Shown here one piece after another: positions 18,267 through 29,521 of a stretch of 64,000 bases of DNA (its first letter is position 1; each line of letters starts with the position of its first letter). The position numbers were made by a program, and so were the translations under genes. The stretch comes from an uncultured virus (IMG/VR IMGVR_UViG_3300029305_005079). Lineage: Duplodnaviria; Heunggongvirae; Uroviricota; Caudoviricetes. Location: IMG/VR virus record IMGVR_UViG_3300029305_005079, one strand, 5' to 3'. A model generated the notes under the pieces. It saw only the letters and a list, made by a program, of their open reading frames with translations, made no database searches and was not told the origin of the DNA.

Positions 18267-21200
18267 TTAAATAAGGCTGATATACATAAGAATTTCTTCG
18301 CATATCAACTCCGGAATTACAGTAATTCGCTGACCGTCTAACTCGCAATCTTCAGGATCAATAATTTCAAATTCACTACTAAGAATGACAGCAATAATAC
18401 CAAGAATATGCTTCTCAATCTTATCATTCCTATACTTGTCTTTGATCTTTTCCCAAAGAGGAGAAGACTCCAGCTTGGTAAGCTCTTTCTTATTCACATT
18501 CTTACGTGTAGCAAGACGCAATACTTTAGAGCTTACGATATGAGGCAGCATAACCATTCCAGAAGCTTCTAGAATTCGCTTTGCTGCAATAATAAGCACA
18601 ATATAATCATCCAGATTGATCATATTTAACGCTGAGGTCATTTATATTCATATAAGGTCGTTAATCTTATACCGTTCTCTTATGAACTGCTATATGTCAC
18701 CATATAGATTAGACTATATCTTTATCCACTTATTTCAGTTGGGATAACTACCATTTCCACTCACTTGAGTGTACGTCTTATTAGACTAGTCGTTGAACCT
18801 TTCTATTATAGAATTGCAATTTTAAGATACATACATCCGTTAGAATCTATATCCGGCTCTATATTATATACTTGCTGTTTCATATATATTTCCGGAATAT
18901 CGTTTATATCTGAATAGATATGATGTATATCGCGATCATTCGCATCAAAACATTCTCGAATAGGTACAATCTTATATTTATAAGAATTTTGCCTAACTCC
19001 AGGATTTTGATGCTCTAAAATATCAGATAATTTTAAAATCATATCTTTAATCCTCCTATACTAGACTTGGCTGCTGATTGTCTCTCTCGAGAGTTCCCAG
19101 CAATTAAATAGTTGTTGTTTTCTCTGTATATTCCTATACAGGGGAACTTTCTCAAATCCCCAAAATACTTGAAAAATAAGTTAAATACTAAATCTCTCTG
19201 GAATGCATTTACGGTACATTTTGCTCCATCTGATAGTCTATGCTTATAATACTGAATCTCATCAGGATCAAAAGGACCGTACATAAGCTTTATTTGATTC
19301 ATAGCATCATCTGACGCTGTCTGTGCTTGTACTAACAGCGCAGTATCAGCTTTGTTGAGAAAACTTTCGAACTTGTCGAATTCACTCGTTTGTGTTCACA
19401 TAGGTCGCTAATCTATGCAGTTCTCTTATGAACTTCTATATATTTCTATACAGACCAGACTATATCATTACCCACTTATTTCAGTTGGGGTACTCTCCAT
19501 TTCGAACTCGCTTGAGCCCTACTCTACTTGATTCATCTATATACTTAAATGTCTTTCGATAGTCGTTGAACCTTCCTATATAGATAGGCTTGGCTGCTGA
19601 TTATCCCTACATGTATGATCAGAGGATTTCCCAGCAATTAAAAGAGTTTATTGTCATAGCATTCCTACTATGCTGAACTAGTTGTAATATTAATTCAGAT
19701 CTTCGTCACGTCTGGACGAGGAGAGCGAAATAAAACTAAATTCGTATTCTATATCCAAAATCTGGAAGCCTGTATTGCGTAAGATTGATTTATAATTAAG
19801 ATGGACAAGGTTGCCATCATAACGATACTTAGGCATAATATTTATCAATACATTCTGTACAGATTGTAGAGTATGAATACTTGTATTTATACCTCTAATA
19901 TCCTGCATATTCCAAATAGTCTGATTTCGTTTAGCAGTTCTCAGAACATTTGAGATTGCAGTTTCGTAGAGTTTGTTATATATGTCTATATCATACTTTC
20001 TGTCATATTGTTCGATAAGTATGTCATAGACACTTAAAATAAATTCCGTGGAATTGGTAATCCCACGGGCATACATAAAATGACACATTAATGGAATCAT
20101 ACAATTCATAATGGTAGATGCTTTCATCATCACCTGACCATGTCTCGTTATTTTCACCTAGACCGCGGCTAGGCAGTTATCAATCAAACTGTTACTAAGA
20201 TTGATATCATCTTTAGGATTTGCCTAAAGACAAGACTATATCTTCACCTTCAGCTCTACCTGTTAAGGTGCTCCCCATTTCGGATCTCGCTTGAGTCCTA
20301 CTCTACTCACTACTTCTATAAACGCCGGTGGTATTTATAGAAATGTTTTCGATAGTCGTTGAACCTTCAAACTGCGCCCTCCCCGGGCTTTATGTACTTC
20401 CGTGCGCCAGGGTTAAAAAGGTAAAAATGTGTTTCGTGGTTTGCCAATAAAAAGAAAAATACGTTCAATAAAAAGTTTCTGGTGCCGATGACAGGACTTG
20501 AACCTGCACGGACTTATCCACTGGTTCCTAAGACCAGCGTGTCTGCCAATTCCACCACATCGGCATATATTTATTAAAGCAAACAAACGAACTTCCAGGG
20601 TTTGGGGCGGCGTAGTGCTTGGCTGCTGATTGTCGATTGTCGATAATACTTAGAGTTTCCTCATATATCATCTTATCTGTTTTTTCTGACTTTCGTCTCT
20701 ATGGGAGCATGACGATAACTTTACGCCTTCTCCTGTAGTGGATAAGCTTTACGACTTCCCAGCAATTAGAGGAGTTTGTTCCGCTATATTTCTATATCGG
20801 AGTGACTAAAATTTTGTTGTAATCACTGTATTGCAAATTCGGATTCTTGAGATTTTTGTACGTCAAATTCAAAGAGTAGTTATCTCTATTCATGTATCCA
20901 ACTTTAAGAGAAATGGATCCATTCATAATATAACGTGTCAAATCGTAGAAGAATGCTTCTCTCGTATATGCAGGCTCATAATCGATAAGATACTTAAGTC
21001 TGCAATATATCATAGGAAGCTCATGCTCTAAGTCATAGAATTTTTCAAAGTAATTTAAATACTGAATTGTATGAGCTCTCATCTCAGGATTATTATAAGA
21101 ACGTTTCGTACTCATTACAAAGGCATCGAGCTGAGGATTCGGCTCCATACCAAAAAAGGAAGAAACGTCTAACATAATTGCCCCTCGGACGGTCTTGAAG

Positions 21201-22376: not shown

Positions 22377-22676
22377 CTATTTGATTATTTTAAAATAGCC
22401 ATAACATGTTTTATTTGATTTCATACCTTCTTTGATTTTAGGATCATCAGGATAAGGCAGTACATCAAATGGACCAGAATAGTCATATAATCCCGAATCT
22501 ATTCTGTCTTTTCCCTGATAAGCCCAATCTATTAAAACACATTCTATAGGTATTAAAGTATCTGGATTATCATACTCGATAGCTGCAAACATATTTTTAT
22601 CTTTTGTAGATTGCATTATTTTCCATCCACTTTTATCATTCTTCATAATTTCTATATAAGGTATTAAATTATTCAT
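22377..22676 (-). CDS. hypothetical protein
   Basis: coupled to the rtcB stop. Confidence 0.6.
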   Translation of the reverse strand: MNNLIPYIEIMKNDKSGWKIMQSTKDKNMFAAIEYDNPDTLIPIECVLIDWAYQGKDRIDSGLYDYSGPFDVLPYPDDPKIKEGMKSNKTCYGYFKIIK

Positions 22677-23818
22677 TTTGTTTCACCATCCGCTTTAAAG
22701 TTATATATTGGTCGGATTATACCATCAATTCTAACTGTATCGCTTATACGTTTAGTAAGATATTCCATCGATTTATAAGCCATGGGAGCTTCATCTATAG
22801 TACTTCTCATAATAGAAGTACTATAAATTCCTTTCATACTCTTTTTAAATTCAGAAAGAGTAATAGCATTTCTAGCTTCCTCTCTAGACATTAATCTTCC
22901 TGCTCCATGCGGTGCAGAATCGTTCCAATCTTCATTTGCTTTTCCTGTTACTATAAGCGATCCATCTCTCATATTAATCGGGACAATAGATCTCATCCCT
23001 CTAGCAGTAGAAATACAGCCTTTTCTCATTCTATATCTATTGCCAGCGTTATCAATAATAAGACGAATATAGTTATGACAGCTGTTAAGTCCATCAAATA
23101 TATCATATTTCCATTTCATTTCAACGCATATTCGTCTTAAAATGGTCAATCTATTTATATGAGCGAATTCTTCAAGCATATCTACATCTTCTACAAAATC
23201 TTCTGCAAACTCACCATCCAGATAAGTAAATGCGTAAGGTTCTTCAGGGTGCTGTTCTTTTGCCTTAGTTTTATAAAACTCTGCAACTTCAGCACCAAGA
23301 TGACGACTTCCGCTATGAACGATAAGCCAATAGTAGTCTTTGTCTCCTACAGTTTCGATACCAAGTTCAATGAAGTGATTTCCTCCACCGAGTGTTCCAA
23401 CACTTCTAAGAGCTTTATCCTTATTAAATACATTACAGTTAAGCAAATCTAGCATATCTCCATCCATAGCTAAATTATTTAAAGGTTTATCATAGATTCT
23501 CATTCCATTTGGAATTTCAAAATCTATAAATTTATCTAACTTTTCTAGATTAATTTTAGGCTTTCCATGAAGCCTAATTCCAGTTATTCCACATCCTATA
23601 TCACCTCCAAGCAATATAGGAGAAACTTTATCTTTTGTATCCATACTGGTACCGATAACACATCCGGCTCCTGCATGAACATCCGGCATAATTCTTATTT
23701 TAGCATCTTTTCCAATTGTACTATTTACAAGAGCATTTATTATACCTAATGAATTTGTATCAATTATATCTGTAAATACTTTGCAGTTTTCAGATATAAT
23801 AGTTTCATAATTTCCCAT
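22673..23818 (-). CDS. rtcB: RtcB-family RNA ligase
   Basis: MPDVHAG, GGDIGCG, GTLGGGNHFIE, VHSGSR, HN, RKG, SAPHGAGR, DEAPMAYK. Confidence 0.95.
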   Translation of the reverse strand: MGNYETIISENCKVFTDIIDTNSLGIINALVNSTIGKDAKIRIMPDVHAGAGCVIGTSMDTKDKVSPILLGGDIGCGITGIRLHGKPKINLEKLDKFIDFEIPNGMRIYDKPLNNLAMDGDMLDLLNCNVFNKDKALRSVGTLGGGNHFIELGIETVGDKDYYWLIVHSGSRHLGAEVAEFYKTKAKEQHPEEPYAFTYLDGEFAEDFVEDVDMLEEFAHINRLTILRRICVEMKWKYDIFDGLNSCHNYIRLIIDNAGNRYRMRKGCISTARGMRSIVPINMRDGSLIVTGKANEDWNDSAPHGAGRLMSREEARNAITLSEFKKSMKGIYSTSIMRSTIDEAPMAYKSMEYLTKRISDTVRIDGIIRPIYNFKADGETK

Positions 23819-26310: not shown

Positions 26311-29300
26311 TTAAAATACAGGATTTGACATCTTTCCCTTGTCTTCTTCAAGGCAGAGAGTAAGATTGTACAAACTCTGAATGGCTTCTTTATCGGAAGT
26401 TCTAACACCCTTAGAACCAAGATTAAAGTAATGAGATTTAGCTCGTAACTGTTCATCTAATTCAGCATTAGCCTCTTCTGAAAAGACTCCTTTGATCGTA
26501 ACTTGGTCACCATCCTAAATAATTTTATGCTCGCAACGCATTTCCTATCTTTCGATAGTAATTAGACTATATCATATCAAGAATACTCTTGATCTCCCCG
26601 CTTCGAATCGTCATTAGCCTACGATCCTACTCTACTTGATTCATCATATAGATGTCTTTCGATAGTCGTTGAACCTTCTCTTTATATAAAGAGCTTGGCT
26701 GCTGATTGACATAGGATTTATCCCTTAGCTTTCCAGCAATTCAAGGAGTTTAAGGATTACAATCGGTGAAGTTTATAATCCGTATTGGATTTATGATTTA
26801 TACATACTACCTTTATTTTCATAAAGGGCTAGACTATATCTTATCTCTTATAGAGATCTTCCCGTTTCGGATGTCTCCTACTCTACTCGATTCATATTTC
26901 TATGTCTTTCGATAGTCGTTGAACGTTCTCCCTTATTAGAGAGCTTCGCTGCTGATTAGCATATCTTTTGACTTAGCTTTCCAGCAATTAGAGAAGTGTT
27001 TATTTACATCGGAGGCAATTAATGATGGTTTACCACCGATGCCGTCAAGGTATAGATTGGTCAAATTCAAAGTATCAATAAATCTATTTGATGTATTTGA
27101 ACCAATATCGTTTTGACGGATAAGAGGATAATTCTTATAATAAGTACCATTGATAATCATAGGTTCTGTCTTTGTAGTAGACGAGATTCTTACTTTTGTA
27201 GGGAATTGGTTAAAGTAGCTATCGCAATATCTTCATATGGAGTCGTTAATTCCATACCGCTTTTTAAAGCAGCTCTAGCTCACGCTAGAAGTTGAGACTA
27301 TATCTTTACCCTTTCGGGTACTCCCCATTTCCACTCACTTGAGTGTACTCCATTTCTGGATAGTCGTTGAACATTATTCAATACATGTAAAGAATTTCTT
27401 TTCCAAGTGATCTAGCAAATTCTATTTCACTTTTTGTAGATTTTCCAATATAGCCATCTTTATTTATTACATAAATAGCATCAGCCATACGAATTTTTTC
27501 TTTATGCATTCTATCAAGCATTTCTTTATTTGAACCTTCCCAAGCTTCTTCATCGCCTGAATGTCCAAATAAACCCACAGAGATAACTATATTCCCTCTA
27601 AGAGTAAGCTCTTTTTGAGCTTTGATAAAGTCATCTTTAAATTTTGTCGAACCGCATAAAGTAATTATTGGAAATCTGAAATTATTAATGATTGAATCTT
27701 TGCTGCTGATTGTCTCTATAACTGTATTATCTGAAGAGAAATTATAATTTTTCTTTTCGATAAGCCTATTAATATTGATTCGTTTAAGTAGATATATGTG
27801 TTCATCTTGTTTGATTATTTCTTGCAGTTCATCTACTTTGGGAAGAGTAGAAAATCTGTATCTTTCATAATCATTAAAGAAGTCTATATATACCTCTCTA
27901 GCCATATATGGTGATGTATATGCAGGTTGGAATATCCAATTAGATCTTATATCAGATCCGTCTACATATATTTTGAGATATATACATCTATTGTCACCAG
28001 GCACAAAATACTGTCTTGAGTTATTGAATACAGCTGTATAAATTTCTTTAATATTCTGAACTTGATAGGCTGTAAGCGCTATCTTTTCAGGACTAGCTGT
28101 TTTAATAAAATTATCTACAAAATCACTCATATTTATCACTCCTTTATTATATTACTAAAATGATAAGATATGATTATAGTTGTAATAAGAGACGTCCCAG
28201 CAATTAAAGGAGTTTTCACTAGTAGATTTCTCTACTAGGCGACCAATTTGATCGGATATCTAGTTATTAGAACATGCTTATCCTTAGTTGCTTCAACTGC
28301 AGCCATATAAAGAACATCACACCATGTGAGATCTCGCTCCATAATAGGAAGCTGTCCAGGATCGTGCTTAGCATATTCTTCCTCTGTCATACCATATCCC
28401 TTAAATCTAAGAACCACAGTTGGTCCTTCTACAGTAGGAACCCTGATCGGAATAAATCTATTTGAGAATCCGGTACAAAATCTATCGATTTCTTTACGGA
28501 TTCTTTCATCGGAGAATTCAACCTGGTAATCCTTTGGATGCAAATAAGATACTGTTCCATTCTTAACCATAGGGATTACGGAGTCTCCGGAAAATTCATT
28601 TTCAAAGAATCTTCTTACATGATAAACTACAAAAGGTAAGAAGTTTACGCATGCAGATGCTAGAGGAAGCAAGGAATAATCCAAATCAGCCTCAATATCA
28701 TCTAAGCGTTCAACTTTCAATTCAGGAGCGGAAAGAACAAGACGTGAACCATAGTCAGTAGTCTTACTCATAACAGCTCTTCTTAGAATACCTGTCTTAC
28801 CAGGAATTATGTTTGTAGTCTTCTCTCCATTAATAGTAGTACCAGAACCAAACCAGTCGTAAATTTGTACAAGAGTTTCTTGAATTCTACCTCTTGTAGC
28901 AGCATTTAGATTTAGTCCGTATTCTGAAGATTCTTTAAGAGCTTTTACAAAAATAATAAGATTTCTATAAAGCTCATTAATCTCTCCTACAGCAACGTGT
29001 CCGCCTTCAGTGTTAACGTCTCTATAGTATGCAGGACATACTACAAATTTGCGGATAAACATTTCCGGAGTACCCATATATTTTTCAATAAATTGGACTC
29101 TCATATCACGTTGTCTAGAAGAGGTTCTTTTAAGTTTAAATTTGTCTATATTTTTTCTAATGAATCCAATACCATTTTCGCCATTCTCATCAGGAACTAG
29201 TTCTCCATCTTTAATAATGAAAGTATTAGTACCATGAACGCATGCTTTGATATTGGAATCTATTTTGCACCACATTTTATAGATAAGAGGATTCATAAAA

Positions 29301-29521
29301 TACTCTTCAAGATTAATGTATGCAAAAGTATTTGCTCGATCATATTTTGTAATTCCAAAAATCTCATTAGACAAAAGTCCATCTGAAGTTGGAACTGAAT
29401 TTCGAACAAAGAATACTGGATTGGTTACTTCTTGAAGATCATTAACCTTTACCAGCTTTTCAGGATCTATTAGATTGACCCTAAGATGATTTTCTTGAAT
29501 AAAATCTGGCATTTTCATCAC
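26311..29521 (-). CDS. RNA polymerase beta' N-terminal/catalytic subunit (probably virion RNAP), ~557 aa, 4 exons: 28251-29521, 27032-27224, 26775-26780, 26311-26514
   Basis: DGLLSNEIFG, GKTGILRRAVMSKTTDYGSRLVL. Splicing gives ITRYP(AT|C)DSYFNQ and GIGG|DY|DGDQVT (catalytic DxDGD). Late-type promoter variant CACA-N6-TA at 29527-29538. Confidence 0.9.
26515..26774 (-). mobile_element. group I intron F (260 nt)
   Basis: P 26732-26741; Q 26698-26707; R 26663-26673; S 26565-26573; P1 GAUUAU/GUAAUC; terminal G at 26515. Confidence 0.9.
26775..26780 (-). other. 6-nt micro-exon GATTAT (Asp-Tyr of the RNAP DYDGD motif)
   Basis: lies between the terminal G of intron E and P1 of intron F; needed to complete the catalytic motif. 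Confidence 0.88.
26781..27031 (-). mobile_element. group I intron E (251 nt)
   Basis: P 26980-26989; Q 26948-26957; R 26913-26923; S 26832-26840; P1 AUCGGUGGU/GCCUCCGAU; terminal G at 26781. Confidence 0.9.
27225..28250 (-). mobile_element. group I intron D (1026 nt) with an internal ORF spanning the P5 and P6 loops
   Basis: P 28196-28205; Q 27702-27711; R 27361-27371; S 27296-27304; P1 CGAU/GUCG; terminal G at 27225. Confidence 0.87.
27378..28139 (-). CDS. intron-encoded 253-aa protein with C-terminal nucleoside 2-deoxyribosyltransferase-like/DUF4406-like Rossmannoid domain
   Basis: ITLCGSTKF...HKEKIRMADAIYVINKDGYIGKSTKSEIEFARSLGKEILY; RBS AAGGAG; no endonuclease motif. Confidence 0.7.
   Translation of the reverse strand: MINMSDFVDNFIKTASPEKIALTAYQVQNIKEIYTAVFNNSRQYFVPGDNRCIYLKIYVDGSDIRSNWIFQPAYTSPYMAREVYIDFFNDYERYRFSTLPKVDELQEIIKQDEHIYLLKRININRLIEKKNYNFSSDNTVIETISSKDSIINNFRFPIITLCGSTKFKDDFIKAQKELTLRGNIVISVGLFGHSGDEEAWEGSNKEMLDRMHKEKIRMADAIYVINKDGYIGKSTKSEIEFARSLGKEILYMY

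Follow-up and report, generated by a model that had tools for sequence, protein, structure and literature searches.

The 64,000-nucleotide (nt) stretch of DNA analysed here, hereafter the window, belongs to an uncultured virus of the Caudoviricetes (IMG/VR record IMGVR_UViG_3300029305_005079) and carries on its minus strand six group I introns of one family. One of them, intron D, interrupts the gene for the β′ subunit of a phage RNA polymerase and contains an open reading frame (ORF) that, as read from the DNA, runs through the ribozyme core. Conserved core letters spell at once a protein linker and strands of the RNA. We conclude from sequence comparisons that this dual coding is real. The overlap cannot be an annotation error because the core, as an internal linker, connects two conserved domains and because relatives of the protein use two frames of the same letters. 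The explanation that best accounts for the whole is a group I intron with coding L5 and L6a loops, joined through the core into a protein of 250 residues. We hold it to be highly likely, including the proposals made below for expression, for the conflict between translation and splicing, for the origin of the ORF, and for the role of its product as cargo. All feature coordinates are window positions on the minus strand (Table 1).

This is a jumbo-phage genome in which the genes of a multisubunit RNA polymerase are split (PHROGs 2986, 3015, and 25005). Near-identical DNA was found in animal-gut metagenome runs from 15 studies, with no RNA run among those listed. The exact P, Q, R, and S motifs of the family each occur in six copies, on the minus strand and in collinear order, which delineates six introns. 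Four of these were detected by Rfam above threshold, with scores of 55 to 95 bits, and introns A and D were missed. The limits of intron D were deduced from the intron-less β′ protein gp212 of Bacillus phage BpSp. The translation of exon 1 aligned to gp212 with 30% identity up to residue 385 (...TRYP), and a single residue, encoded by an Ile codon split AT|C, separates this alignment from that of exon 2. The junction TRYP-I-DSYFNQFP is thus ungapped relative to gp212 residues 385, 386, and 387. Since the exons abut without a gap around the split Ile codon, intron D extends from 28250 to 27225 (1026 nt). Its predicted P1 (CGAU/GUCG) places a U.G pair at the 5′ splice site, P10 is CGAU/AUUG, and the intron ends with a G at 27225. 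No intron-less allele, i.e. no joint skipping 28250-27225, was found among 15 of the 21 metagenome-contig joints listed. Intron D has the core elements P, Q, R, and S in order with the P4, P5, P6, and P7 pairings and, as predicted from its sequence, the U.G pair, the terminal G, and a ligation that would restore the host gene. By these features, it is a group I intron of a working type in an essential phage RNA polymerase β′ gene.

An earlier note on this DNA had placed P and Q about 490 nt apart. The exact motifs occupy 28205-28196 and 27711-27702, and their starts are separated by 494 nt. The P5 strands that it had proposed (28188-28193 and 27712-27717) form six Watson-Crick pairs out of six (GTCTCT/AGAGAC) and do enclose the ORF start and the N-terminal half in L5. 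An alternative Q nearer to P was also looked for: Q is the sole site within intron D at two or fewer mismatches from the motif. At the same tolerance, 57 matches were found across the window versus 58.6 expected, i.e. no enrichment. Because the loose pattern is at chance level window-wide, it is the six exact collinear copies that carry the weight of the assignment of Q. The P4 and P5 5′ strand (UUGCUGGGACGUCUCU) was matched to 20-nt windows slid from P5 to R (794 positions). The best partner was 27721-27699 (-16.4 kcal/mol), versus -11.3 kcal/mol for the best unrelated site and a mean of -5.4 (standard deviation 2.5) over the 794 windows. P5 and P6a of intron D are in the same register as in the family introns from the window and from IMG/VR, in which different stem letters still pair (e.g. 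CCTTAG/CTAAGG, ATTGGG/CCCAAT, and ATTTATTTAG/CTAAATAAAT). P6a in the family register was found in 10 of the 13 distinct family introns listed, intron D included, with differing stem sequences.

The core strands are ancestral, since the same letters are present in ORF-less introns and in intron A. In the latter, a sister of intron D, ...AGAGAC AATCAGCAGC is arranged around a 4-nt loop (tetraloop). An ORF-less relative from metagenomes has ...CATAAGAGAC upstream of Q and keeps the AGAGAC hexamer. A 21-mer scan of metagenomes revealed the same 21 core letters in two ORF-less introns, L048 and L049. Intron D has gained about 470 nt in L5 and about 300 nt in L6a. These inserts explain the sub-threshold Rfam score: RF00028 gave 39.8 bits (E = 2e-8; gathering score, 50) and correctly aligned the 3′ half only. 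A covariance model built from six compact family introns and run with filters off (R1) gave 70.8 bits (E = 2e-18), also for the 3′ half only.

The failure of covariance models to bridge the loops, together with the very large size of the P5 and P6a loops, would fit a mis-assigned Q or a dead ribozyme, with the true P4 partner elsewhere, or with dependence on other factors and core letters in the ORF that are a mere remnant. We consider this very improbable. No other site lies within two mismatches of the motif, and the second-best duplex is less stable by 5 kcal/mol. The RNA polymerase subunit is split inside a conserved block, so that removal of the intron must be exact. The core letters are invariant in four metagenome runs despite 12 listed variants of the ORF around them, and the linkers of relatives conserve RNA letters rather than a peptide.

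The likely start codon of the ORF is ATG 28130, located 8 nt downstream from the Shine-Dalgarno sequence AAAGGAG (28145-28139). Strong Shine-Dalgarno sites of the same type are present at 34 of the 56 window ORFs of at least 120 amino acids. The GTG at 28139, given as the start in the ORF listing, was rejected as it overlaps the Shine-Dalgarno sequence. The translation contains ...DNTVIETISSKDSIINNFRFPIITLCGS..., in which the P5 3′ strand, Q, P6, and the P6a 5′ strand are read as I-E-T-I-S-S-K-D-S-I. The reading of the core as IETISSK was confirmed by translation and extends to IETISSKDSI. Codons 138-147 (27717-27691; 27 nt) coincide with P5-3′, P4-3′ (Q), P6-5′, and P6a-5′, an overlap of the type known as core creep. 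The frame stops just before R, as the earlier note had stated: the TGA at 27380-27378 lies inside the P6a 3′ strand, 5 nt upstream from R, which begins at 27372. No in-frame ATG, GTG, or TTG occurs between Q and the C-domain, which would therefore be made solely by read-through of the core.

Full-length relatives of the ORF product are 98% (P0001), 69 to 72% (P0002 to P0004), and 49 to 50% (P0005 and P0006) identical to it. These seven sequences, including that of the window, align end to end with 49 to 98% identity. P0126, P0127, and P0129 are further members, and both halves are kept in a single frame in 10 distinct full-length sequences. In four metagenome runs, the covering contigs carry the ORF without listed indels. 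The 12 natural variants listed for these runs comprise seven synonymous and five non-synonymous changes. Four of the latter are located in linker codons 122-151, and none of the 12 falls in 27691-27717. The 98 positions of the C-domain contain three listed variants, all synonymous (codons 154, 179, and 185).

These data bear on the possibility that the long ORF does not yield a single protein, whether because ribosomes drop at the folded core, leaving the N-terminal half alone, or because the frame is a relic that is open by chance. N-terminal or truncated gene calls do exist (P0124, of 135 amino acids and ending ...IISSKDSI, P0121, P0122, and P0123). We nevertheless judge this alternative improbable: it does not account for the high conservation, in the intron, of a C-domain devoid of its own start, nor for the distinct full-length sequences with both halves in frame. 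The truncated P0123 differs from the full-length P0126, its twin, by a frameshift. A frame of 250 codons is also not expected by chance, given that the two alternative frames across the core stay open for only 13 and 16 codons (contig L015). The preferred reading is thus a single protein translated across the core.

The relatives provide what we regard, on comparison of their sequences, as the decisive evidence for dual coding, namely a reading of the core in two frames. The motif [I/T]ISSKDSI is invariant in the window, in P0001 to P0004, and in P0124, and P0126 has TISSKYSI. The flanks of this motif in the linker differ among relatives by up to 18 residues in length. At the position of ISSKDSI, P0005, P0127, and P0006 have DNQQQRF(N/D), and nucleotides 27714-27691 of the window translate to DNQQQRFN in another frame. 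Homologous proteins whose N-domains have diverged to 26 to 29% identity thus use two different frames of the same 24 RNA letters (GAC + Q + AAAG + ATTCAAT). Both readings occur within one cluster formed at 90%: P0123 has ...KKDNQQQIF... and its twin P0126 has ...KKTISSKYSI.... Since the same letters are used in two frames, a protein-level reason for ISSKDSI is excluded and the constraint is on the RNA. The core letters would be constrained as RNA and the protein would tolerate the residues that they specify because these fall in a disordered linker of variable length. The linker has a pLDDT of 25 to 40, and AlphaFold2 run on the eight-sequence alignment leaves residues 121-140 disordered.

DNA of the divergent relatives was searched for in several collections. 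IMG/VR gave solely the near-identical contig L001, none was found in the JGI metagenome scan or in GTDB genomes, and GenBank phages gave matches to the C-domain alone (nine records). A 17-mer scan of IMG/VR returned 45 loci, six of which have any P, R, or S motif of the family (L015, a near-identical contig, included); the rest were chance-like. Besides the two ORF-less introns, the 21-mer metagenome scan gave no ORF-bearing relative.

The earlier note had proposed that two loop insertions were fused into one gene. This is plausible: the halves lie in L5 and L6a, the core between them is ancestral, and the C-domain is free-standing elsewhere, although no pre-fusion intron was seen as DNA. Since the core between the halves is ancestral, one insertion could not deliver both, and at least two acquisitions are needed. 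The ORF would have arisen when coding sequences acquired separately by the two loops were later joined through loss of the intervening barrier, in a bridging form of core creep. Two frames across Q would imply two independent joinings or a compensated frameshift. It is possible, though we hold this only tentatively, that the core is a frame-neutral splice point between two genes carried by one intron in separate loops. Identical P5′/Q/P6/P6a letters would be read as ISSKDSI in one lineage and as DNQQQRF in another, the L5 and L6a genes having been joined in two independent events or by way of an intermediate such as P0123, whose frameshift was tolerated. Capture of a pre-existing two-domain gene as a whole, the intron-like linker being secondary, is in our estimation extremely improbable. 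The order of the domains is indeed identical in every two-domain relative. However, the letters of the linker are those of the core of ORF-less introns (the 21-mer of L048 and L049, and AGAGAC plus Q in intron A), a single insertion cannot place sequence on both flanks of a core that is already present, and the N-domain was never seen outside the intron setting.

The C-terminal half had been described as similar to NDT and DUF4406. The fold predicted for it bears this out, and the sequence signals are weak and sub-threshold. DUF4406 (PF14359) matched the C-half with E = 0.002 and 18.8 bits, and the whole protein with 16.4 bits, below the gathering cut-off of 22. A match to DUF4406 at E values of up to 0.01 was obtained for 7 of 16 relatives (best, 5.8e-4). 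The match to PHROG 355 had an E value of 0.004. Profile and sequence searches of the PDB with the C-domain gave nothing significant (best E values of 0.16 and 0.6). In comparisons of predicted structure by VIA, the Z scores to NDTs were 10.0, 10.0, 9.0, 8.9, and 8.7, the best match being 6evs_B (root-mean-square deviation of 3.0 over 92 residues, 23% identity). All of the top eight matches belong to the NDT/DNPH1/MilB superfamily or are structural-genomics relatives, and generic Rossmann-like folds trail at Z scores of 7 to 8. The top Foldseek matches were likewise DNPH1 and NDT (DNPH1: E = 2.5e-3, probability 1.00). The C-domain therefore is, as modelled, an alpha/beta domain of the NDT type. 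Glu235, in the sequence G-x-S-T-x-x-E, is invariant in 16 of 16 sequences. This motif may resemble that of the NDT nucleophile.

More than 2,500 proteins share about 70% identity with the C-domain, and most of them come from Bacteroidales. The nearest relatives of the phage polymerase are instead from Staphylococcus, Bacillus, and Fusobacterium jumbo phages. Relatives of the C-domain (P0007 to P0120) occur alone or at either end of HIT, DUF4298, GNAT, UPF0158, helix-turn-helix (with an RNA polymerase alpha C-terminal-domain-like module), and Cys-rich partners, so that high conservation goes along with promiscuous fusion. Outside this setting the C-domain is free-standing: 79 of 80 IMG/VR loci have no intron-family motifs beside it.

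In the AlphaFold2 model of the N-domain, built from eight sequences, the pLDDT is 77 for the whole domain and about 90 over residues 20-120. This domain had no Pfam or PHROG match, no fold match (best Foldseek E = 0.16, best VIA Z = 3.2), and no usable match in the Atlas. A profile of the domain had six matches among 1.84 billion representatives, five of which are relatives of the intron-D ORF. The sixth, P0125, is a repeat protein of 1,685 amino acids (E = 2.6e-8 over six short stretches) and was judged to be a spurious repeat similarity. The orphan N-domain thus appears to exist solely in the setting of intron ORFs. Intron A (18712-19105), which scores below the Rfam threshold, is the closest relative of intron D in P5′ and in the 3′ tail. 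It carries in its P6 loop an ORF for 78 amino acids (19042-18806) with its own AGGAGG. This ORF was considered as a relative of the N-domain and dropped, as the similarity is limited to 10 residues (E = 0.047).

Its restriction to introns (five genuine matches of the six), its lack of a known fold, and the large loops, which might need help in folding, could indicate that the N-domain or the whole protein serves the intron, as a maturase clamping P4-P6 or as a new homing nuclease. We consider this unlikely. The core of the N-domain is acidic in all eight sequences (isoelectric points of 4.5 to 6.1) and K53 is its sole invariant polar residue, which fits neither a nuclease nor an RNA binder. 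No homing-endonuclease family (GIY-YIG, HNH, LAGLIDADG, His-Cys, PD-(D/E)xK) was matched by the whole protein or by either half at E values of up to 1 for Pfam and 0.1 for PHROG. Finally, no such protein is encoded by the compact sister introns that share this core. We favor instead an accessory cargo that would act in nucleotide metabolism and would not be a homing endonuclease.

Synthesis of the protein would start at the Shine-Dalgarno sequence and AUG of the ORF, which a local hairpin would mask as in the td/I-TevI system of T4. The predicted hairpin (z = -2.74) folds equally well in 1 of 200 shuffled sequences and may have a regulatory role. The early-promoter match reported in L5 was not retained. 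With up to three mismatches, the 12-mer ACAACTATAATC was found 123 times versus 127.9 expected, i.e. at chance level, and the string lies at 28183-28172 rather than 28185-28174. A sigma-70 scan gave no site at this string, and 10 sites versus 14.3 in shuffles.

Exact splicing would be required for a functional polymerase. A ribosome crossing codons 136-147, or located at the stop codon, would have to unwind P5, P4, P6, and P6a. As the core helices would be opened, splicing and translation should exclude each other on one molecule. Translation would most likely take place after splicing, on the excised intron RNA, or be kept rare on the precursor. That translation melts P4/P5 and blocks splicing we infer from the geometry of the overlap and from the precedent of I-TevI.

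Several points weigh against the interpretation developed above. The case is built on DNA, contigs, and predicted proteins. Rfam and R1 leave the 5′ half and Q unaligned across the 470-nt and 300-nt loops. The structure model of the full-length protein is poor (pLDDT of 51; 55 to 70 for the C-half), so the match to NDTs uses a weak model. The hairpin over the ribosome binding site is predicted from one sequence, and its 111-nt context folds no better than shuffles (z = -0.49). The 12 variants are those listed, and 180 further entries exist. Broken or frameshifted assembly forms (P0121, P0122, P0123, and P0128) indicate that the ORF is sometimes broken or mis-assembled. Finally, P0002 to P0006, P0126, and P0127 are known as peptides alone, and the argument drawn from them is that peptides match translations of window letters.

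The closest precedent is the td intron of phage T4. The ORF for I-TevI runs from a loop into the core, its last 20 nt forming part of P6a, P6.0, and P7 (PMC3073962). The ribosome binding site lies in a hairpin, and ribosomes on the core impair splicing (PMC3073962, citing Gibb and Edgell 2010). Intron D is similarly a phage group I intron with a loop ORF entering core helices and a predicted hairpin at the ribosome binding site. In td the core is at the end of the ORF, whereas in intron D it would occupy a central position, between domains from two loops. The overlap also differs, with 27 nt of P5-3′, P4-3′, P6, and P6a-5′ plus the stop codon in P6a-3′, and the protein is not predicted to be a GIY-YIG endonuclease.

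The same source lists a LAGLIDADG ORF of the large-subunit rRNA intron of Synechococcus lividus, which overlaps 81 nt over P6/P7/P3/P8/P9.0/P9 (PMC3073962, Table 1). Fungal mitochondrial intron ORFs are described as fused to the upstream exon (PMC3073962, PMC8393795). Overlap of ORF and core is accordingly known at ORF ends, part of it being suspected to reflect mis-called gene ends (PMC3073962). As in these cases of core creep, the frame of intron D crosses core strands whose letters serve RNA and protein. Unlike those cases, in which one endonuclease gene is extended to its start or stop, it bridges two separately folded domains. No account of a core used as an internal linker between domains or read in two frames was found in a literature search that left most subscription journals outside. 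The intron-D ORF thus appears to be a variant of the known overlap, in which the internal-linker position and the two-frame reading would be new.

An intron in the RNA polymerase gene of the jumbo phage PhiPA3 encodes the HNH homing endonuclease gp210, which has a role in phage competition (PMC11620839). Both introns are ORF-bearing and located in a conserved block of a multisubunit RNA polymerase gene. The ORF of intron D differs in passing through the core and in lacking an endonuclease signature. The C-domain itself resembles the NDT/DNPH1 (Rcl)/MilB superfamily in its modelled fold (Z = 10.0 to 6evs_B). It differs from curated DUF4406 and NDT proteins in its Pfam score below the cut-off and in forming its own tight group (about 70% identity, more than 2,500 proteins).

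Table 1. Features of intron D, its ORF, and the interrupted RNA polymerase gene (window positions).
Feature	Position	Strand	Description
Exon 1, phage RNA polymerase β′ gene	28251..29521	minus	PHROG 2986, E = 7e-57; ends ...ITRYP + AT of the split Ile codon
Intron D, group I	27225..28250	minus	1026 nt; homology junction plus predicted P1, P10, and terminal G
P2 hairpin, CTAGTAGA-GAAA-TCTACTAG	28219..28238	minus	GNRA hairpin found by family model R1 (rank 2)
In-frame TAG ending exon-1 translation	28235..28237	minus	4 codons into the intron; ORF 28235..29521
P element (J3/4 + P4 5′ strand), AATTGCTGGG	28196..28205	minus	exact family motif, 6 intron copies
P5 5′ strand, GTCTCT	28188..28193	minus	pairs with 27717-27712; register as in other family introns
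L5 hairpin pairing Shine-Dalgarno (28145-28139) and AUG (28130-28128)	28127..28173	minus	predicted, -11.3 kcal/mol
ORF	27378..28130	minus	250 codons + stop; same initial Met in P0001 (98% identical)
N-domain, residues 1-120, in L5	27771..28130	minus	orphan alpha+beta domain
Linker, residues 121-152	27675..27770	minus	predicted disordered, length-variable; holds the core-encoded residues
P5 3′ strand, AGAGAC	27712..27717	minus	codons I-E-T
Q element (P4 3′ strand + first P6 pair), AATCAGCAGC	27702..27711	minus	exact motif; codons (T)-I-S-S
P6a 5′ strand, ATTCAAT	27691..27697	minus	codons D-S-I; 7 bp with 27382-27376
C-domain, residues 153-250, in P6a loop (L6a)	27381..27674	minus	predicted NDT/DNPH1-like fold
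P6a 3′ strand, ATTGAAT	27376..27382	minus	contains ORF stop TGA 27380-27378
R element (P6 3′, J6/7, P7 5′), GTTCAACGACTA	27361..27372	minus	exact family motif plus alignments
Ribozyme 3′ half: P3 3′, P8, P7 3′ (S GATATAGTC, 27304-27296), P9	27273..27360	minus	Rfam RF00028 plus model R1
Exon 2	27032..27224	minus	Ile codon finished by C, followed by DSYFNQFPTKVRISS...LYLDGIGG; gp212 alignment begins at residue 387
Family core motifs: P AATTGCYGG, Q AATCAGCAGC, R GTTCAACGACTA, S GATATAGTC		minus	

Further features were observed in the host gene and elsewhere in the window. Introns E (27031-26781) and F (26774-26515) are apparently separated by a micro-exon of 6 nt, GATTAT (26780-26775). The exons around them would read ...LYLDGIGG / DY / DGDQVTIKGVF, matching ...LQALGGDYDGDTVSLRGVF of gp212, and the catalytic aspartate motif of β′ would be split by two introns only 6 nt apart. 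P1 of intron F would be GAUUAU/GUAAUC with a U.G pair. One metagenome contig of 25.6 kb (run X4) has 1,089 other letters in place of 26518-26978 and keeps intron D and its ORF, which indicates that intron content at the E/F site is polymorphic between strains. Intron C (20211-20831) has an insert of about 100 nt in L5 and a tRNA gene (20483-20564, 58 bits) in its P6 loop. A gene for an RtcB-type RNA ligase (22673-23818) lies near intron C. In an IMG/VR contig, a skipping-rope RNA (RF02924, 59.3 bits; L034:2570-2653) is located about 1 kb from a related intron.

The locus of intron D cleanly separates constraint acting on an RNA from constraint acting on a protein, and it offers a natural setting in which the sharing of one RNA by a ribosome and a ribozyme can be tested. 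It is, in addition, a case of a phage intron whose cargo is apparently not an endonuclease, and it holds an orphan domain. If the core does act as a frame-neutral splice point between loop genes, the loops of group I introns would be able to assemble new multi-domain proteins, and synthesis of the fused protein would be gated by whether the RNA has already been spliced.

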